The notes: generated by a model from the letters alone, not told the origin. A stretch of DNA of 64,000 nucleotides from an uncultured archaeon (GCA_964584335.1 CAZOZN010000003.1:86436-150435); one strand, 5' to 3'; counted from the first letter of the stretch, positions 3,062-61,072 are shown. Program-made: numbers and translations.

Positions 3062-4762
3062 ATGAGATATTCAGAACTTGCGAATGTTTATGAGACTCTT
3101 CAGAACACGCAATCAAAACTTGAGAAGGCCGATATACTTGCTGACCTTTTTTTAAAGGCAAACCCTTCTGAACTCTCTAAACTTGCTTATTTGGCTTCAG
3201 GGAGAGTTTTTTCATCTTATTCAAAGGAGGTCATAGGTATAGGTGCCCAGTTGATGATAAAAGCAATATCCAGGGCAACCGGGTTTTCAACGAAAGAGGT
3301 CGAGGATAAGTTTAGAGAAAAGGGGGATTTGGGGTTGGCTGCTTCTTTTTTTGTAGAATCAAGAAGACAAAGAACCTTAATGAGAAGGAAACTGACTGTT
3401 GATAAGGTTTTTAAAAACATAAGAGAACTCCCAAAAATAACAGGTTCTCGCTCCCAAGAAAAAAAAATGAACAATATATCAGAACTTTTTGCTTCCGCGG
3501 AACCCAAGGAGGCAATTTATATAACGCGTACTATACTCGAGGAGCTTCGTGTTGGTGTTGCTAGGGGGATGATAAGGGATGCTATAACTAAGGCTTTTCT
3601 CCACCCTAATAACATGGAAGAAAAAAAGGAATATACAAAAAAAGTTGATTATGCATATAACATACTATCGGACTTTAGCGAGGTTGCGAGGATAGCAAAG
3701 GAAGAAGGCATTGAGGGTCTTGAGAATGCTAGAGTTAAACTCGGTCAGCCCATGCATTTAATGCTTGGTGAGAAAGCCGAGTCTATAGAAGAGGTCATTG
3801 ACAAGTTTGGTAAAGTAGTTGTTGAATACAAATATGACGGCATGCGAGCCCAGATACACAAAAAAGGCAATAAAATATGGATTTTTACAAGAAGACTTGA
3901 TGACGTAACCAAACAATTTCCGGACCTGGCGGAGATGTGCAGGAATTGTCTTGTTCACGATGAATGTGTTGTTGAGGGAGAAGTTCTTGCAGTGGACCCC
4001 GAGACCGGTTATCCTAGGCCTTTTCAGAAACTTTCGCAGAGAATACAAAGGAAGTACAATATAAAGGAAATGTCTGAGAAGATACCCGTTGAAATAGACC
4101 TTTTCGATATTATGTATGTTGACGGTAAAATGCTATTCGGAGAGAGTTTTATAGAGAGAAGAAAAGTACTTGAAAATTCTGTTAAAGTAAAAAAAGGTAA
4201 GTTCCAGCTGGCAAATCAGATGGTTACTGACAGTCCCAAGGATGCCGAAAAATTTTACAAAGAAGCCCTTGAAGCCAGACAGGAAGGCATATTTATGAAA
4301 GTTCCTGATTCAAAGTATGTTTTCGGAAGACATGTCAATGGTTGGTACAAGATAAAACCTGTCATGGAGACTCTCGACCTTGTTATAGTTGCTGCCACTT
4401 GGGGTGAAGGGAGAAGGTCTAAGTGGATAAGTTCTTATGTTCTTGCATGCCGTGAAGAAGAAACTGGAAAATTCCTTCCTTGTGGAATGATGGGAACAGG
4501 GCTTACTGAGGAGATGTTTCAGAATATGACTGATAGATTGAAGCCTCTAATAAAGGAGGAAAAAGGGAAGGAAATTGAGGTCAGGGCTCAGATAGTTGTA
4601 GAGGCTGCTTATCAGGAGATACAAAAATCACCCACTTATGAAGCAGGGTATGCTCTTCGTTTCCCAAGACTGATAAAGATTAGAGAAGACAAGGGACCCG
4701 ATGAAGCTGATACAATAGAAAGGCTTATAAATCTTTACAAAAGCCAGGGAAGAAAAGGATAA
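3062..4762 (+). CDS. lig: ATP-dependent DNA ligase (archaeal/eukaryotic type)
   Basis: Adenylation motif EYKYDGMRAQIHK (KxDG); 566 aa; N-terminal DNA-binding domain and C-terminal OB domain layout. Confidence 0.9.
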   Translation: MRYSELANVYETLQNTQSKLEKADILADLFLKANPSELSKLAYLASGRVFSSYSKEVIGIGAQLMIKAISRATGFSTKEVEDKFREKGDLGLAASFFVESRRQRTLMRRKLTVDKVFKNIRELPKITGSRSQEKKMNNISELFASAEPKEAIYITRTILEELRVGVARGMIRDAITKAFLHPNNMEEKKEYTKKVDYAYNILSDFSEVARIAKEEGIEGLENARVKLGQPMHLMLGEKAESIEEVIDKFGKVVVEYKYDGMRAQIHKKGNKIWIFTRRLDDVTKQFPDLAEMCRNCLVHDECVVEGEVLAVDPETGYPRPFQKLSQRIQRKYNIKEMSEKIPVEIDLFDIMYVDGKMLFGESFIERRKVLENSVKVKKGKFQLANQMVTDSPKDAEKFYKEALEARQEGIFMKVPDSKYVFGRHVNGWYKIKPVMETLDLVIVAATWGEGRRSKWISSYVLACREEETGKFLPCGMMGTGLTEEMFQNMTDRLKPLIKEEKGKEIEVRAQIVVEAAYQEIQKSPTYEAGYALRFPRLIKIREDKGPDEADTIERLINLYKSQGRKG

Positions 4763-7696: not shown

Positions 7697-9727
7697 GTGT
7701 TATTAATGTTTGTTGGTATCAAAAAACGTGACGGCAGGATAGTAAAATTTAATTCTAAAAAAATAACAGATGCTATTGCAAAGGCCGGCGAAGCTACCGG
7801 AGAATTTGACAGAGAAGTCGCAGAAAAGCTTACAATGAAAGTGATGTCTCTTGTACAGCAAGTTTTTGATAATGAGATGCCCACGGTAGAGAAAATACAG
7901 GATTTGGTTGAAGAGGTTTTGCTTTCTTCCACATACAGAAAGACCGCAAAATCATATATAATTTACAGGGAACAGCATGCCAGAATGAGAGAGATAACCA
8001 ACAAGGCTCATGTTGAACTGATAGACCAGTATCTTAAAAAAATGGACTGGCAGGTAAACGAGAACAGTAACATGACTTTTTCTCTTCAGGGTCTTAACAA
8101 TTATATTTCTTCTGAGATAAGCAAAATTTATTGGCTTAATGAGATATATCCTGCTGAAATAAAGAATGCAGCACAACAGGAGGATTTTCATATACATGAC
8201 CTTAATCTGCTCTCAGTTTATTGTGTTGGATGGGATCTTTATGATTTGCTTGCCGAGGGATTTAGGGGAGTTAGTGGTAAAGTAGAAAGCAGCCCCGCTA
8301 AGCATTTTAGGAGTGCTTTGGGTCAGGTAGTAAACTTTTTTTACACTTTACAGGGCGAGGCAGCGGGTGCACAGGCATTTTCGAATTTTGATACACTTCT
8401 CGCACCTTTTATTAGATATGACGGTCTTGAGTATAAGCAAGTAAAGCAGGCTCTTCAGGAGTTTATATTTAACATAAACGTGCCTACCAGGGTAGGCTTT
8501 CAAACCCCATTTACTAACATAACACTGGACCTAAAACCTCCTAGCTATTATGCGGACCAAAGCGTCATAATAGGAGGCAAGCCAAAGGACAAAAATTATA
8601 GCGATTTTCAGGAAGAAATGAATATGCTAAACATGGCTTTGTTTGAAGTTATGAGCGAGGGTGACGCAAAGGGCAGGGTTTTTACTTTCCCCATACCCAC
8701 ATACAATATAACAAAAGATTTTAACTGGGATGATGAAAAGCTTGATGGTTTGTGGGAAATGTCGGCAAAGTACGGTATACCGTATTTTTCAAATTTTGTT
8801 AATTCGGACATGAGTCCTGAAGATGCCAGAAGCATGTGCTGCAGACTTCGTCTTGACAAGAGAGAACTTGAGAAGAGAGGAGGCGGACTCTTCGGCTCTA
8901 ATCCTCTGACAGGTTCTATAGGAGTTGTTACTATAAACATGCCCAGAATAGGGTATTTGTCTAAAAACGAGAAAGAATTTTTTGAAAGGCTTGAGAATCT
9001 AATGAAATTGGCTAAGAACAGCCTTGAGATAAAAAGAAAGGTTCTAGAGAACTTCACAGAAAAAAACCTTTATCCCTATTCAAGATTTTATCTCAGGAAC
9101 GTAAAGAAAAAATTTGGAGAATATTGGAAAAATCATTTCTCTACTATAGGTCTTGTTGGTGTTAACGAGGCTTGCCTAAATCTTTTAGGTGTTGGAATAT
9201 CTAAAGACAAGGGCAGGGATTTTGCATCTAGAGTTCTTGAGTTTATGAGGGAAGTTTTGGTAAAATTCCAGGAGGAAACTGGTAACAATTACAATCTAGA
9301 AGCTACTCCAGCAGAAGGTACTTCTTACAGGTTAGCAAGGGTTGACAAAGAGAAGTACCCCGATATAATATGTGCTAACGAAGAAGAATACAAAAAGGGC
9401 GGTGAACCATTTTATACGAACTCTACACAGTTACCTGTTAACTACACTGAAGACATATTTGAGGCACTCGATTTACAAGACAGTTTGCAGTCAAAATACA
9501 CCGGAGGCACAGTTCTTCATATATTTCTTGGTGAGAGAATAGACGAATCTAAAAATCTTAAGAACATGGTAAGAAAAATATGCGATAATTACCATCTACC
9601 GTATTTTACCTTCACACCAACTTTCAGCATATGTCCCATTCATGGTTATATAAAGGGAGAACATAAGTACTGTCCCAAATGTGACAAGGAAATTGGATAC
9701 GAAGTTGAAGAGATTAAAAATATTTAG
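7697..9727 (+). CDS. nrdD: anaerobic ribonucleoside-triphosphate reductase NrdD, body with ATP-cone, catalytic barrel and zinc ribbon; lacks the glycyl-radical domain in this frame
   Basis: N-terminal ATP-cone GIKKRDGRIVKFNSKKITDAIAKAG; C-terminal zinc ribbon CPIHGYIKGEHKYCPKC; ORF ends with TAG at 9725-9727. The track's GTG start at 7697 may instead be the ATG at 7706. Confidence 0.85.
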   Translation: MLLMFVGIKKRDGRIVKFNSKKITDAIAKAGEATGEFDREVAEKLTMKVMSLVQQVFDNEMPTVEKIQDLVEEVLLSSTYRKTAKSYIIYREQHARMREITNKAHVELIDQYLKKMDWQVNENSNMTFSLQGLNNYISSEISKIYWLNEIYPAEIKNAAQQEDFHIHDLNLLSVYCVGWDLYDLLAEGFRGVSGKVESSPAKHFRSALGQVVNFFYTLQGEAAGAQAFSNFDTLLAPFIRYDGLEYKQVKQALQEFIFNINVPTRVGFQTPFTNITLDLKPPSYYADQSVIIGGKPKDKNYSDFQEEMNMLNMALFEVMSEGDAKGRVFTFPIPTYNITKDFNWDDEKLDGLWEMSAKYGIPYFSNFVNSDMSPEDARSMCCRLRLDKRELEKRGGGLFGSNPLTGSIGVVTINMPRIGYLSKNEKEFFERLENLMKLAKNSLEIKRKVLENFTEKNLYPYSRFYLRNVKKKFGEYWKNHFSTIGLVGVNEACLNLLGVGISKDKGRDFASRVLEFMREVLVKFQEETGNNYNLEATPAEGTSYRLARVDKEKYPDIICANEEEYKKGGEPFYTNSTQLPVNYTEDIFEALDLQDSLQSKYTGGTVLHIFLGERIDESKNLKNMVRKICDNYHLPYFTFTPTFSICPIHGYIKGEHKYCPKCDKEIGYEVEEIKNI

Positions 9728-9737
9728 AGGTGAAAAA

Positions 9738-9875
9738 ATGAAAGAAGGAATAAAAAGAGGCAGGACAGAATGTGAAATATACTCGCGTTCTGTGGGATAC
9801 CTTCGTCCGGTGAACCAGTGGAACAAAGGAAAGAGAGAGGAGTTTAAAGAAAGAAAAAATTTCAGGGCGAGTTAA
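9738..9875 (+). CDS. 45-codon mini-ORF encoding the NrdD glycyl-radical motif (separate frame from nrdD body)
   Basis: Translation MKEGIKRGRTECEIYSRSVGYLRPVNQWNKGKREEFKERKNFRAS contains the class III RNR glycyl-radical signature (R-S/V-x-GY ... WNxGKxxE). Strong RBS GAGGTGA at 9727-9733 overlaps the nrdD TAG; ATG at 9738; stop overlaps the nrdG ATG (TAATG at 9873-9877). Confidence 0.5.
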   Translation: MKEGIKRGRTECEIYSRSVGYLRPVNQWNKGKREEFKERKNFRAS

Positions 9876-10561
9876 TGAAAGTAGGTGGTTTTCAAAAGTT
9901 CTCTTTGATAGACTACCCCGGAAAGATTTGCTGTATTGTTTTTACTCAGGGTTGCAACTTTCGTTGCCCCTATTGTCATAATCCAGAATTGATTAATTTT
10001 AAGGAAAAAAGTTTAATAGATGATAATAAAATATTTAGTTTTTTGGAAAAGAGAAAGGGAAAGCTTGATGCTGTATGTATAACCGGAGGTGAACCCACTT
10101 TACAACCCGATTTGATAAATTTCATCAATAAAATAAAGGATATGGGTTATCTTGTTAAAATTGATTCTAACGGAACATCTCCTAAAACTTTGGAAAAGAT
10201 TATTAATATGGGAATTGTTGATTATTTCGCAATGGATTTTAAGTCACCTATAAAAAAGTATCATAATGTTGTAAATTCTTCTGTTGACAAAGAGGATATA
10301 ATAAAAAGCATGAATGTTATAATGAGTTCTGGTGTTGACTATGAGTTCAGGACTACTGTAGTAAAATCTCAGCTTTCTAAGAAAGATTTGATTGAAATAT
10401 CGAAAACCATAAAAGGTGCAAAATTGTATGTTTTGCAGAAATTTGTTCCATCACAAACTCTTGACCCTTCTTTCTCAAAAAAGAAAACTTATACTGATTC
10501 TGAGTTTAAAGAATTGAGGAAAGAAATCAAAAATTACGTAGAAAGATGTATAGTTCGATGA
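9875..10561 (+). CDS. nrdG: anaerobic ribonucleotide reductase activating protein, radical SAM
   Basis: CNFRCPYCHN (CxxxCxxC) near the N-terminus and GGEP motif; translationally coupled to the upstream mini-ORF. Confidence 0.85.
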   Translation: MKVGGFQKFSLIDYPGKICCIVFTQGCNFRCPYCHNPELINFKEKSLIDDNKIFSFLEKRKGKLDAVCITGGEPTLQPDLINFINKIKDMGYLVKIDSNGTSPKTLEKIINMGIVDYFAMDFKSPIKKYHNVVNSSVDKEDIIKSMNVIMSSGVDYEFRTTVVKSQLSKKDLIEISKTIKGAKLYVLQKFVPSQTLDPSFSKKKTYTDSEFKELRKEIKNYVERCIVR

Positions 10562-10592
10562 TTTTACCGACCATTAGCTTTAAATAGTATTA

Positions 10593-10650
10593 TGAATATA
10601 TATTCAATACATGTAATGAATAAGTATTCATTAAACTTTTAGAAAAGTTT
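10593..10650. promoter_or_regulatory. three consecutive perfect palindromes upstream of the DUF5320 operon
   Basis: TGAATATATATTCA (10593-10606), AATGAATAAGTATTCATT (10615-10632) and AAACTTTTAGAAAAGTTT (10633-10650); the first two share half-sites TGAATA-N2-TATTCA with centres 24 bp apart. Confidence 0.45.
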
Positions 10651-10687
10651 AATCAAAATCTAAAAAACAAAAAAGAGGTGATTTTAT

Positions 10688-10972
10688 ATGCCAAGAGGAG
10701 ATGGAACAGGACCTAATGGAATGGGACCCAGGACCGGAAGAGGCCTTGGATACTGTAATGGATATGATAACCCTGGGTTTAATAAAGGAATGCCCAGAGG
10801 TGGTGCAGGATTTGGCAGAGGTTTCAGAGCAAGAAGATTCTGGAATGAGCCAACATATCCCCAGAGAATTACAAAAGAAGAAGAAAAAAGAATGCTAGAA
10901 GACGAGAAGAAATACATAGAAAATGAACTTAATGATATAAAGAAAAGACTTGATGAAATCAAAAAAGAATAA
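10688..10972 (+). CDS. DUF5320-family glycine-rich small protein with C-terminal coiled coil
   Basis: MPRGDGTGPNGMGPRTGRGLGYCNGY N-terminal signature, RGF/GRG repeats, K/E-rich helical tail; RBS GAGGTG. Confidence 0.6.
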   Translation: MPRGDGTGPNGMGPRTGRGLGYCNGYDNPGFNKGMPRGGAGFGRGFRARRFWNEPTYPQRITKEEEKRMLEDEKKYIENELNDIKKRLDEIKKE

Positions 10973-10989
10973 TTTGGAGGTGATTTTAT

Positions 10990-11223
10990 ATGCCAAGAGG
11001 AGATAGAAAAGGTCCTGATGGTTTGGGACCAAAAACAGGCAGGTCACTTGGTTTTTGCTCTGGTGAAGATACTCCAGGATACGTAAGCAATCTTCCCGGA
11101 ATGGGAATGGGAAGAGGACCAAGAGACGGAAGAGGCCGAGGAAGAGGTTTCGGCAATTCCGAGTACAATCCCAGAGGAGAAAGAAGACCAAGAGACGGAA
11201 GAGGCCGAGGATACAGGGATTAA
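10990..11223 (+). CDS. DUF5320-family paralog
   Basis: MPRGDRKGPDGLGPKTGRSLGFCSGE; the RBS and first ~25 nt are identical to the upstream paralog (GAGGTGATTTTATATGCCAAGAGGAGAT). Confidence 0.6.
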   Translation: MPRGDRKGPDGLGPKTGRSLGFCSGEDTPGYVSNLPGMGMGRGPRDGRGRGRGFGNSEYNPRGERRPRDGRGRGYRD

Positions 11224-11224
11224 A

Positions 11225-11647
11225 ATGGACGAAAAATTAAGAAAAAGCATAAAGAAATCAGCCAAGTCTCTTTGGAACACAATTCCAGTGTTGGCCGGAG
11301 TTGTTTTATTTGTTAGTCTGGCCAATGCTGTTATACCTAAATCATCATATTCAATAATATTCACGGGAAACATTATTTCAGATTCTTTCATTGGCGGAGC
11401 TCTGGGCAGCATACTTGCGGGCAACCCCGTTACGAGTTACGTTCTCGGAGGAGAATTCCTTAACCAGGGTGTCAGCCTGATTGCGGTAACAGCCTTTCTG
11501 GTTTCATGGGTTACTGTTGGTTTTGTCCAGCTTCCGGCGGAATCTCTTTTGCTTGGAAAAAAGTTTTCAATTCTAAGAAATTTGACAAGTTTCATATTTT
11601 CAATAATTGTCGCAATAATAACGGTTTTTGTGGTGGGGTTAATATGA
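11225..11647 (+). CDS. predicted permease, first half (4 TM)
   Basis: Hydrophobic 140-aa protein; stop overlaps the next ATG (ATGA at 11644-11647). Confidence 0.45.
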   Translation: MDEKLRKSIKKSAKSLWNTIPVLAGVVLFVSLANAVIPKSSYSIIFTGNIISDSFIGGALGSILAGNPVTSYVLGGEFLNQGVSLIAVTAFLVSWVTVGFVQLPAESLLLGKKFSILRNLTSFIFSIIVAIITVFVVGLI

Positions 11648-12153
11648 AAAAAGAAAAAAGTTACACGTCCTGGTGCTTTTTGGCAATTGTTTTAGTTTTG
11701 TATGCAGGATACTGGTTTTTCAGTCCTGCTAATGTCATGAGCGCATTGAATTTTGGTTTCGGTATATTGAAGAACATAATCCCCGTTTTTGTTTTGATAT
11801 TTGTTTTGATGGTTGCTATCAATTATTGGATGGACCCAAAAAAAGTAACTAAACATTTGGGGAGTTCTTCAGGATACAAAAGATGGTTTTTTGCTGTTTT
11901 AGGAGGAATACTTTCTACCGGACCCATATATATGTGGTATCCAATTCTGAAGGAACTCAAGAAGAAAGGAGTTAATTACGGTTTTGTTGCAACGTTCCTT
12001 TACAACCGGGCCATAAAACCGCCTCTCTTGCCTCTGATAATATATTACTTTGGTCTCAAGTTTACTATAGTTCTTACTGTTGTAATGATGATTTTCTCGG
12101 TTTTGCAGGGAATTATTTTTGAAAAAATTGATGAAAGGGGTGTTTTAAAATGA
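11644..12153 (+). CDS. predicted permease, second half (4-5 TM)
   Basis: Start chosen at the ATG at 11644 (MKKEKSYTSWCF...) rather than the track's upstream frame-overlapping start; multi-TM. Confidence 0.45.
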   Translation: MKKEKSYTSWCFLAIVLVLYAGYWFFSPANVMSALNFGFGILKNIIPVFVLIFVLMVAINYWMDPKKVTKHLGSSSGYKRWFFAVLGGILSTGPIYMWYPILKELKKKGVNYGFVATFLYNRAIKPPLLPLIIYYFGLKFTIVLTVVMMIFSVLQGIIFEKIDERGVLK

Positions 12154-12265
12154 AAAACAACAAAACAAGTTTTGAATTTTTCACTTTTTATGGAGGTGTT
12201 TTAAAATGAAAAACAACAAAACAAGTTTTGAATTTTTCAATTCTTATAGGGGTGTTTTAAAATGA
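12137..12265 (+). repeat. 56-bp tandem duplication (2.3 copies) of the permease 3' end plus the nifX-like RBS and start, creating two 19-codon coupled uORFs
   Basis: Units GGTGTTTTAAAATGAAAAACAACAAAACAAGTTTTGAATTTTTCA at 12138-12193 and 12194-12249, plus a partial third. uORFs at 12150-12209 and 12206-12265 (MKNNKTSFEFF...GVLK) each end in ATGA overlapping the next start. Confidence 0.7.
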
Positions 12266-12564
12266 AAATAGCAATTTCGTCTAAAGGCAAAGACGAGGAT
12301 TCTGAAGTAAGCAAGGTTAGCGGTAGAGCTCCTTATTACTTGATTTTTGAAGATTGTAATTTGGTGAAATCAATCAAAAATCCTTTCAGGATAGGCGGTG
12401 GCGGTGCTGGTTTTAGTGTTGTAGAAATGCTTGCAGAAGAAAACGTAGGTTTGGTTTTAAGTGGAAATTTTGGTCATAACATGAAAAAGGCTCTTGATGA
12501 TAAGGGAATATCTTATAAGGAGATTTCATGTATTAAAATAAGGGAAGCTTTAATGGAGGTTTAA
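12262..12564 (+). CDS. NifX/NifB-like dinitrogenase FeMo-cofactor-binding family protein
   Basis: MKIAISSKGKDEDSEVSKVSGRAPYYLIFE... fold signature; GGGGAG loop. Confidence 0.7.
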   Translation: MKIAISSKGKDEDSEVSKVSGRAPYYLIFEDCNLVKSIKNPFRIGGGGAGFSVVEMLAEENVGLVLSGNFGHNMKKALDDKGISYKEISCIKIREALMEV

Positions 12565-12566
12565 TA

Positions 12567-12926
12567 ATGAAAGTTGCGATTCCTACAAAGGGAGATGGCG
12601 GTTTGGATAGTGTTGTGGGTGAACATTTTGGCAGGGTACCAAATTACACTATAGTTGATATGGGAGAAAAAAAGATTTGCGTAGTTTCTAATACAAGTTC
12701 TCACAAAGGCGGTAAGGGATATCCTCCAGAGATAATGAAAGAAAATGATGTAGATGTTATGATATGTAGGGATATTGGCAGTCGTGCCGTATCTATTTTT
12801 AAAGAAATGGGTATAAAGGTTTTTATAGGAGCCAAAGGAACTGCAAAGAATGCTTTAGATGATTTTAAAGAAGGTAGATTAAAATCTGCAGACACAGAAC
12901 ATGTTTGCAGGGGACACATGAGTTGA
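12567..12926 (+). CDS. NifX/NifB-like family paralog
   Basis: MKVAIPTKGDGGLDSVVGEHFGRVPNYTIVD is the canonical motif of this family. Confidence 0.7.
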   Translation: MKVAIPTKGDGGLDSVVGEHFGRVPNYTIVDMGEKKICVVSNTSSHKGGKGYPPEIMKENDVDVMICRDIGSRAVSIFKEMGIKVFIGAKGTAKNALDDFKEGRLKSADTEHVCRGHMS

Positions 12927-12930
12927 TTAT

Positions 12931-13383
12931 ATGCCGAGACCTAAAAGGATGAGAAGAATAGCTGGTATGCCTGGATTCACGCATTTTGCTCCCCGTGGTT
13001 TTAGAGCAAAAGAGGAAGTGATTCTCACAGTTGGTGAGTACGAGGCAATAAGGCTCAAAGACCATGAAGGTTTGGGTCAGAAAGATGCTGCCAAAAAGAT
13101 GAGTGTTTCCCAACCTACTTTTAATCGCATACTTAAATCTGCCAGAGAGAAGCTTGCTGAGTTTCTTGTTGAAGGCAGGATTATAAGAATAGAAGGGGGT
13201 GATTATAAAATGATTAGGCCAAGAAGAGGTGCTGGTCCCGGTAGAGGAAGAATGGGTGGAATTGGTGCAGGACCTATTGGAGAATGTATATGTCCTAAAT
13301 GTGGTCATAAATCTCCTCATAGACCAGGTTTGCCGTGTTATGAACAAAAATGTCCAAAGTGCGGAGAAATGATGACAAGATAA
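12931..13383 (+). CDS. DUF134/UPF0251 predicted DNA-binding protein with C-terminal glycine-rich segment and zinc ribbon
   Basis: MPRPKRMRRIAGMPGFTHFAPRG...VILTVGEYEAIRLKDHEGLGQKDAAKKMSVSQPTFNRILKSAREK (sigma-70 r4-like HTH); C-terminus GAGPGRGRMGGIGAGP then CPKCGH...CPKCGE. Confidence 0.65.
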   Translation: MPRPKRMRRIAGMPGFTHFAPRGFRAKEEVILTVGEYEAIRLKDHEGLGQKDAAKKMSVSQPTFNRILKSAREKLAEFLVEGRIIRIEGGDYKMIRPRRGAGPGRGRMGGIGAGPIGECICPKCGHKSPHRPGLPCYEQKCPKCGEMMTR

Positions 13384-13410: not shown

Positions 13411-13803
13411 ATGAAAGATAGTGTTATTGTTAAAAATTTTCTAAATAAGAAAAATATATTTGCTGTTGTGGGCGCATCCAGAAATAAGGATAAGTACGGC
13501 TATAAAGTTTACATAGACCTTAGGAATTCTGGATACAACGTTTACCCTGTTAACCCCAACACAGAGGAAGTTATTGGTGATAAATGTTATCCTTCTCTGG
13601 ACAGTCTTCCGGAAAAGCCCGATGTAGTTAGTTTTGTAGTACCTCCAAAAACTACTGAGAAAGTTCTTGTCGATTGCAAGAAACTTGGAATAAAAAAAGT
13701 TTGGTTACAGCCTGGCTCTGAATCAAAAAATGCAATAAATTTTTGCAGGCAAAATAATATAGAAATATTAAATAATTTATGTATAATGATAGAGAGTAAG
13801 TGA
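13411..13803 (+). CDS. CoA-binding domain protein (YccU-like)
   Basis: FAVVGASRNKDKYGYKVYIDLRNSGYNVYPVNP. Confidence 0.6.
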   Translation: MKDSVIVKNFLNKKNIFAVVGASRNKDKYGYKVYIDLRNSGYNVYPVNPNTEEVIGDKCYPSLDSLPEKPDVVSFVVPPKTTEKVLVDCKKLGIKKVWLQPGSESKNAINFCRQNNIEILNNLCIMIESK

Positions 13804-60947: not shown

Positions 60948-61072
60948 ATGGTAGCGGGGGGTGGATTTGAACCACCGACCTCAGGGTTATGAGCCCTGCG
61001 AGCATTCTGTTTACACCCAGGTTTTATGAACCAAGGAAGTCTCCAGGCTGCTCCACCCCGCTATTTAGATAT
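60948..61072 (-). tRNA. tRNA-Met: tRNA-Met (CAU), initiator-like, with a ~37-nt non-canonical intron in the D-loop
   Basis: Exons read AGCGGGGUGGAGCAGCCUGG ... GCUCG CAGGG CUCAUAA CCCUG AGGUC GGUGG UUCAAAU CCACC (C) CCCCGCU A CCA. A1:U72 and three G:C pairs at 29-31/39-41 mark it as an initiator. The insert AGACTTCCTTGGTTCATAAAACCTGGGTGTAAACAG lies between G19 and the 3' D-stem strand. A 7-C run gives one extra C at the T-stem/acceptor junction. Confidence 0.75.

Follow-up and report, generated by a model that had tools for sequence, protein, structure and literature searches.

A 56-bp tandem array places two 19-codon open reading frames at the overlap of a permease gene and a nifX-like gene in an uncultured archaeon

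We analysed a 64,000-nucleotide stretch of DNA from an uncultured archaeon (GCA_964584335.1, CAZOZN010000003.1:86436-150435; hereafter the window), in which a short tandem array lies between a permease gene and a gene for a NifX-like protein. Positions are counted from the first letter of the window, and features lie on the plus strand unless stated otherwise. The upstream gene, permease gene 2 (11644–12153), encodes a half-size ArsP_1 permease of 169 aa that matches PF03773 above the cut-off (E = 3.7e-11), ends in ...IFEKIDERGVLK* and is 39–61% identical to its relatives. The downstream gene, NifX/NifB-like (Nitro_FeMo-Co) gene 1 (12262–12564; PF02579, E = 3.8e-10), encodes 100 aa; its product has 769 homologues, the closest of them other than itself being 71% identical, and its start at 12262 matches the N-terminus of homologues (MKIAISS...). 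An earlier reading of the window, made by a model from the DNA alone (the sequence-only reading), had described here a 56-bp period present 2.3 times and two open reading frames (ORFs) of 19 codons each, chained by ATGA overlaps into the genuine nifX-like ATG at 12262. All of these features were recovered. Tandem Repeats Finder places a 56-bp array of 2.3 copies at 12139–12268 (94% matches, no indels, score 232), the sole sizeable tandem repeat of the window, every other one scoring 56 or less.

Alignment of the three copies gives the array the layout A-B-A-B′-A. Core A is the 18-bp sequence GGTGTTTTAAAATGAAAA, made up of the Shine–Dalgarno (SD) motif GGTG, a spacer and ATGA, and it occurs exactly three times, at 12139, 12195 and 12251, where 0.03 occurrences are expected at up to 2 mismatches. 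The first copy, A1 (12139–12156), is the native junction core, in which GGTG is preceded by AGG and followed by a 7-nt spacer and the ATGA overlap; A2 (12195–12212) matches the 18-mer exactly; and A3 (12251–12268) now serves the nifX-like gene. Between the cores lie two copies of a 38-bp body, B1 (12157–12194) and B2 (12213–12250), the 27-nt core of which is exact in both and occurs only these two times (0 expected). The 33-nt core of the unit reads TGAAAAACAACAAAACAAGTTTTGAATTTTTCA. The two units differ at four of 56 positions, all within the body (positions 28, 31, 36 and 38), and the longest exact repeat inside the array is 45 bp. The tail of B1 (...TATGGA) supplies the strong SD GGAGGTG to the second short ORF, and the tail of B2 (...TATAGG) restores AGGGGTG as at the permease end; the outer two cores accordingly have 21 bp in common (AGGGGTG...), with the middle one reading GGAGGTG.... 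Native junction sequence makes up only these 18 bp of each 56-bp unit (21 bp for the outer copies), and the remaining 38 bp is neither permease nor nifX.

The insert amounts to 112 bp (two 56-bp units) and, because 56 = 3n − 1, reads as two 19-codon upstream open reading frames (uORFs), each ending on the next start. The ATG of uORF1 (12150–12209, MKNNKTSFEFFTFYGGVLK*) overlaps the permease stop TGA (12151–12153), its TGA overlaps the ATG of uORF2 (12206–12265, MKNNKTSFEFFNSYRGVLK*), and the TGA of uORF2 overlaps the nifX-like ATG, giving three consecutive ATGA (−4) overlaps at 12150–12153, 12206–12209 and 12262–12265. The SD motifs AGGGGTG, GGAGGTG and AGGGGTG sit 7 nt upstream of the successive ATGs, their complementarity to 16S rRNA being assumed, as the 3′ end of the 16S rRNA lies outside the window. 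Of 66 ORF starts, 21 have an SD-like 4-mer upstream, an enrichment over the 13% background, and leading genes of this genome likewise carry GGTG 5–8 nt upstream of ATG (for example, at 10688 and 13411), which suggests that the SD probably supports de novo initiation here too. The flanking genes are co-directional and tightly packed, and the array junctions combine the two hallmarks of a coupled gene pair, a stop/start overlap and an SD within the 3′ end of the upstream ORF.

The array is present in independent assemblies. The sequence-only reading had named reads supporting a single copy as the result that would undo it; such an assembly artefact is contradicted by Logan unitigs from runs SRR15425351 and SRR15425353, which come from a different assembler and from two runs of one population. 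Logan contigs from both runs carry the NifX-like protein and the permease with identical sequence, and the contigs match the window at 100% identity over 17 kb. One of them, L003, ends at 12168; the 31-mer that follows (12139–12169) is common to copy 2, so it has two predecessors. The other two, L001 and L002, start at 12210, at the first 31-mer holding the base that separates copy 2 from copy 1. Both ends are branch points at k = 31, implying that the reads hold both variants of B together with the junction B→A→B, and the continuation of L003 beyond 12157 implies that no empty-site allele is abundant enough to produce a branch there. Because the longest exact repeat is 45 bp, an assembler with k > 45 should resolve the array, and the path permease–B1–B2–nifX should be unique with k ≥ 55. 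Judged by the positions of the unitig ends, the array is not an assembler artefact.

Comparison with relatives identifies the form of the junction that lacks the array. The nearest relatives are metagenome-assembled genomes (MAGs) labelled Nanoarchaeota, Aenigmatarchaeota or Woesearchaeota (DPANN). The permease, scanned against the species representatives of GTDB, yielded 15 loci and no permease relative above 61% identity, and the junction was compared in eight DPANN relatives (L004–L009, L021 and L022). At six of these loci (L004–L009), the permease stop and the nifX-like start share ATGA, for example in ...GGAGGTGGGATAATATGAAAATTGCC... and ...GGGGGTGAAATCATGAAGATTGCT.... The other two carry the two closest NifX homologues in a search of 5.8 billion proteins (P0002 and P0003, 70–71% identity, on contigs L022 and L021) and have the same operon with the same direct overlap (permease end 1504, nifX start 1501). 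None of the eight has an intervening ORF between permease and nifX, and in seven of them a GGTG SD lies 5–7 nt upstream of the ATGA, L005 being the one without. Deletion of 12139–12250 from the window gives back exactly the ancestral junction form of the relatives. The comparison with sister genomes proposed in the sequence-only reading thus turned up only junctions without the array, the nearest of them at 70–71% NifX identity. Because eight relatives have the direct overlap and the deletion restores the ancestral form, the array is, judged by these sequence comparisons, a 112-bp insertion specific to this lineage, placed in a −4 overlap that is conserved and SD-assisted.

Our searches detected no source for the 38-bp body. 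The window and 22 loci, searched with blastn-short and tblastn, yielded low-complexity chance matches only, and local alignment of B to the permease 3′ end, the nifX 5′ end, the 5′ end of the second nifX-like gene and the reverse complements of the flanks stayed at chance level. A scan of viral sequences gave no match, and an exact 23-mer scan of JGI metagenomes gave one unrelated sequence, in two samples. This match to the core of B lies on two JGI metagenome contigs with the same sequence (L019 1327–1349, minus strand; L020 1630–1652, plus strand); read on the opposite strand, it encodes MKNSKLVLLAFVLL..., the signal-peptide N-terminus of a putatively secreted protein; the similarity does not extend into the flanks, and we discarded the match as chance. 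For this organism, 73.3 kb could be searched (the 64-kb window and a 9.3-kb rightward extension, L023), and it holds no further copy of A, of B or of the palindromic core, at up to 9 of 38 mismatches for B. The loci of the relatives (147 kb) hold no copy of the unit. No other ATG-initiated relay ORF was found in 211 kb of window and relatives, where a scan for short ORFs bounded by overlaps gave only TTG/GTG frame artefacts. A superficially similar 72-bp tandem repeat of 2.3 copies in one DPANN relative (L010 1439–1596) belongs to the minus-strand gene of an 849-aa beta-helix repeat protein and was set aside as irrelevant.

The unit contains a 33-nt quasi-palindrome at 12151–12183, repeated at 12207–12239, in which TGAAAAA and CAAAAC, separated by CAA, are followed after AA by GTTTTG and TTTTTCA, themselves separated by AA. 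The array DNA folds better than shuffles (z = −2.3). For the minus-strand RNA of 12130–12275, a long hairpin is predicted at −27.9 kcal/mol (z = −4.8, with 0 of 200 shuffles as stable), a strong fold that arises from the quasi-palindromic unit together with G–U pairing; no minus-strand gene or Rfam family was found near the array. On the sense strand, the RNA is no more stably folded than its shuffles (z = +1.09, −0.01 and −0.17), has no terminator/antiterminator alternative and no SD-sequestering structure, and an Rfam search gave no match at the array.

The coding content of the relay was also evaluated against chance. The four differences between the units change three codons, giving three amino-acid changes and no synonymous change, which argues that there is no selection on the peptide. 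For a 38-nt filler drawn from this genome with A on both sides, the chance of an open ATG-to-TGA frame is P = 0.54, and for random filler lengths of 20–80 nt, the chance of a stop-on-start chain is P = 0.17. Since uORF2 inherits its open frame from uORF1, these values make the relay statistically unsurprising. Conservation, peptide constraint, sense-strand structure and Rfam matches thus give no support for a dedicated regulatory device, and the peptides are probably without function.

With moderate confidence, we favour a near-neutral, lineage-specific insertion that preserved coupling and was then duplicated by slippage, rather than a selected regulator. A 38-bp body that matches neither flank requires at least two events. 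In the first, B would have been inserted at the coupled junction, becoming flanked by the duplicated 18–21-bp junction (A-B-A). In the second, the 56-bp unit would have been duplicated in tandem, by slippage or by unequal recombination between the A copies, to give A-B-A-B′-A. The quasi-palindrome invites the speculation that B arrived through template switching or filler-DNA repair. The sequence-only reading had interpreted the array as a duplication of the permease 3′ end, ribosome-binding site and start, possibly a recent slippage event. Slippage holds as the simplest account of the second unit, as in ordinary short tandem duplications or variable-number tandem repeats that arise by slipped-strand mispairing, here through slippage or unequal exchange between the 18-bp cores; but a plain native duplication cannot account for the 38-bp body, only 18–21 bp being native, and with 4 of 56 positions different between the copies, the word 'recent' is doubtful. 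Ribosomes that finish the permease would reinitiate on uORF1, then on uORF2 and then on nifX, in three termination–reinitiation steps, and the SD of each core can probably also load ribosomes de novo. The insertion would have been tolerated since it preserved the ribosome-binding site and the coupling geometry of nifX. The sequences themselves establish the anatomy, the empty sites in relatives, the occurrence of the array in independent assemblies and the lack of conservation and of mRNA structure; the order of events, the translation of the uORFs and the neutrality of the insertion are what we infer from this arrangement.

Several observations weigh against this account. First, the source of B was detected in none of the searches run, which makes the first event a black box. 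Second, the search of 5.8 billion proteins returned no NifX homologue between 71% and 100% identity, which limits what can be said about the age or polymorphism of the insertion. Third, the four differences cluster in the last 11 nt of the unit (p = 0.016), which is not expected under uniform neutral decay, while the first 45 nt of both units and all three 18-bp cores are identical; selection or gene conversion could produce this pattern, as could the separate insertion of two variant units. Fourth, the insert may have effects of its own, through its quasi-palindrome or through three T5 runs on the sense strand (12177–12181, 12185–12189 and 12233–12237), against 0.42 expected from the surrounding co-directional genes and about 1 expected at the window-wide density. 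Oligo-T tracts are archaeal intrinsic termination signals, and the insert might cause some transcriptional polarity through these runs.

The proposed relay draws on well-characterized biology. Termination–reinitiation at −4 overlaps with an intragenic SD has been established by experiment in Haloferax volcanii and E. coli, where downstream translation was strictly dependent on upstream translation in 13 of 14 gene pairs and the contribution of the SD varied by pair (Huber et al. 2019, PMC6728339), and its occurrence in archaea and bacteria has been reviewed (PMC12548453). Measured against such coupling at ATGA and TGATG (PMC6728339, PMC10666635), the permease/nifX junction in its ancestral form is a textbook case of a −4 overlap with an SD in the upstream gene, re-created three times here. 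By analogy with these experiments (PMC6728339), translation of the relay uORFs is plausible. The known cases couple two real genes, whereas 19-codon ORFs made by insertion take part in two of the three junctions here. We know of no termination–reinitiation experiments for any DPANN archaeon. The uORFs also recall the short ribosome-delivering uORFs of mycobacteria (Wade, Gray et al. 2015, ref. 75 of PMC12548453) and synthetic cassettes (ref. 78 there); the sole plausible role is the same, ribosome hand-over to the next start codon, but the mycobacterial uORFs sit at transcript 5′ ends and initiate de novo, whereas those of the array lie between cistrons and would be fed by the upstream gene.

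The same observations can be read in favour of a selected expression-tuning device, which would act through two extra reinitiation steps and/or oligo-T termination signals, or through an internal promoter. In its first form, such a device would lower or condition the output of the NifX-like and DUF134 genes relative to the permease genes; in its promoter form, the TTTTAAAA box in each A core would be a TATA box, about 25 nt upstream of a usable SD and ATG. Reinitiation depends on the gene pair and is often below 100% (PMC6728339), so that three serial steps would be expected to attenuate. The excess of T5 runs over the expectation from neighbouring genes points the same way, as do the upgrade of the SD to GGAGGTG by the tail of copy 1 and the identical cores and clustered differences, which hint at a constraint on the first 45 nt. 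Yet none of the eight relatives with the same operon has the element. Neither an alternative fold nor one that would sequester the SD is seen in the sense-strand RNA, and the two copies do not conserve the peptide. T5 runs and TATA-like octamers are also common in a genome of 34% GC, with plus-strand densities of 9.1 and 0.7 per kb, respectively, across the window. We therefore consider selected tuning unlikely.

A special case of tuning is attenuation by a leader peptide. Like the leader-peptide attenuators pheL and trpL, the array places a short ORF upstream of a gene, and its peptide is rich in Phe and Tyr (FEFFTFY). The Phe richness arises because the sequence is T-rich, and none of the downstream genes has a link to aromatic amino acids. 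Those attenuators have terminator/antiterminator hairpins, which the sense strand of the array lacks, and a Phe-leader attenuator fails here on two defining tests, alternative RNA structures and conservation (0 of 8 relatives). To our knowledge, bacterial Phe/Trp-type leader-peptide attenuation is not known in archaea. Of the earlier proposal of a translational-coupling relay or attenuation device, then, the relay architecture stands, whereas attenuation finds no backing in conservation, sense-strand structure, the non-synonymous differences or the probability of an open chain (P = 0.17–0.54).

Next, the unit might be a small mobile or minisatellite element resembling the MIRUs (interspersed repetitive units) of mycobacteria, a member of a dispersed family that inserts at start codons or −4 overlaps within operons, with an ORF that keeps genes coupled. 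MIRUs are described as 40–100-bp units, often in tandem, inside polycistronic operons (PMC12548453 and PMC3184786; Supply et al. 1997 as summarised there). Their sites can be filled in one species and empty in another, and they have short direct repeats on their flanks and inverted repeats within (PMC12548453, PMC3184786). The array is alike in unit size (period 56 bp), in tandem order and in its location in an operon, co-transcription here being presumed from gene packing. It likewise has a small ORF that overlaps the neighbouring stop at one end and the neighbouring start at the other, at −4 spacing, and keeps the downstream gene coupled, a site filled here and empty in relatives, direct repeats flanking the insert, internal inverted repeats, and units that are variants rather than identical copies. 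MIRUs, however, are dispersed over about 40–50 loci per genome, whereas the array occupies one locus in the 73 kb searched; no second locus appeared in the 73.3 kb of this organism, even at 9 of 38 mismatches, nor in 147 kb of relatives, and the metagenome and viral scans yielded one chance 23-mer and no match, respectively. MIRUs are flanked by tetranucleotide repeats, whereas the array is flanked by 18–21 bp of the SD and start of its own target, which resembles local duplication rather than transposition. MIRUs are also described as GC-rich (PMC3184786) and are bacterial, and the array is AT-rich and archaeal, a separation judged from composition only. The array works like a MIRU; it is not filed as one. 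That it nevertheless belongs to a MIRU-like family strikes us as quite improbable; if true, it would be the first family of its kind from an archaeon. The more specific proposal, that DPANN archaea have a dispersed, MIRU-like family of mini-insertions that preserve coupling, is a longer shot still. Such elements would spread to −4 overlaps within operons by copying the SD and ATGA of the target and survive by relaying ribosomes, and the family would be the first outside mycobacteria and in the archaeal domain, with a possible natural copy-number dial on downstream expression.

Body B could instead be the decayed remnant of a tandemly duplicated permease gene 2, produced by recombination between the ATGAAAA at 11644 and that at 12262 and a subsequent internal deletion that left only the first and last codons. 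Two segments of the unit do align, in colinear order, to the junction of permeases 1 and 2 and to the initial 60 nt of permease 2 (local score p = 0.012–0.031 against shuffles), and the uORFs end in GVLK*, as does permease 2. The nominal p is not significant once corrected for 12 comparisons, the permease-2 start ranks only second of the 164 ATGAAA sites of the window, behind a chance site in a lysine-rich ORF, and GVLK* simply comes with the duplicated core A. The permease-2 5′ end as a source of B is thus unproven, and we give a remnant origin a very slim chance. Slimmer yet, to the point of being barely credible, is an assembly or collapse artefact or a miscalled copy number, the true genome having no unit, one unit or more than two. 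In favour of an artefact, the array is both repetitive and short, its source is a metagenome-assembled genome and all assemblies examined come from one population. Yet the unitigs of two runs break exactly at the k-mers predicted for both B variants and B→A→B, no unitig branches where an empty-site allele would diverge, and with four differences and an exact repeat of at most 45 bp, the path should be resolvable.

Interpreted as a near-neutral insertion that preserved coupling, the array would be a clean natural example of an operon junction absorbing an insertion without losing translational coupling. It is a possible archaeal parallel to the mycobacterial MIRUs and a convenient natural template for serial termination–reinitiation with 0, 1 or 2 relay ORFs. 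By itself it reveals no new regulatory principle, it is confined to one uncultured lineage, and the analysis yielded no evidence that it was selected for.

The array lies within a cluster of genes called from the ORF list and Pfam. The organism is AT-rich, and its gene content, which includes ThrRS with an archaeal editing domain, TrmB, DUF7343, a histone and aIF5A, assigns it to the archaea. The cluster, at 10688–13383, consists of paired paralogues followed by a DUF134 gene: two DUF5320 genes (10688–10972 and 10990–11223), two half-size ArsP_1 permease genes, for both of which the Pfam match covers the profile's N-terminal half, and a pair of NifX-like genes. Permease gene 1 (11225–11647, 140 aa) is ArsP_1-like, its match to PF03773 (E = 2.8e-4) falling below the gathering score; its stop overlaps the start of permease gene 2 (ATGA), and the same two-gene arrangement occurs in L021 and L022. 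Downstream of the array, the second NifX/NifB-like gene (12567–12926, 119 aa; PF02579, E = 1e-19) precedes the DUF134 gene (12931–13383; PF02001, E = 8.5e-28), which encodes a predicted helix-turn-helix (HTH) protein and is the last conserved member of the cluster, in the same order in L021 and L022. The gene order of the cluster is kept in DPANN relatives; L021 and L022 each have one gene at the DUF5320 position, and L022 has one NifX-like gene. In bacterial relatives (Caldithrix, Caldisericaceae), a different gene follows the permease. A gene for a CoA-binding protein (13411–13803) lies beyond the cluster.

Upstream of the cluster lie genes for the class III ribonucleotide reductase NrdD (7697–9875) and NrdG (9875–10561). 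The NrdD gene appears split into a main ORF of 676 aa (7697–9727) with the ATP-cone and NRDD domains and, 10 nt after it, a 45-aa ORF (9738–9875) with its own GGTG SD at 9729 and the glycyl-radical motif (...EIYSRSVGYLRPV...). The stop of the 45-aa ORF overlaps the nrdG start, and the same split is called in Logan contig L003; it could represent a separate glycyl-radical peptide or a recoding or sequencing issue. Elsewhere in the window, the only tRNA-like match in 64 kb, at 60952–61022 on the minus strand, is weak, at 32.6 bits for Rfam RF00005 with a gathering score of 29, and ARAGORN predicts no tRNA anywhere in the window; the match may be an atypical or intron-containing archaeal tRNA.

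The region upstream of the first DUF5320 gene (10562–10690) contains a TTTAAATA box, after which the palindrome ATGAATA-NN-TATTCAT occurs twice, and in relative L004 a 25-bp tandem repeat with ATGAATAAATATTCAT lies upstream of the permease genes (3132–3186). These elements are candidates for a conserved operator of the DUF5320/permease/NifX-like/DUF134 operon, in which DUF134 is the predicted HTH protein. A similar hairpin, AGTTTCATATTATGAAACT, occurs upstream of 14876.

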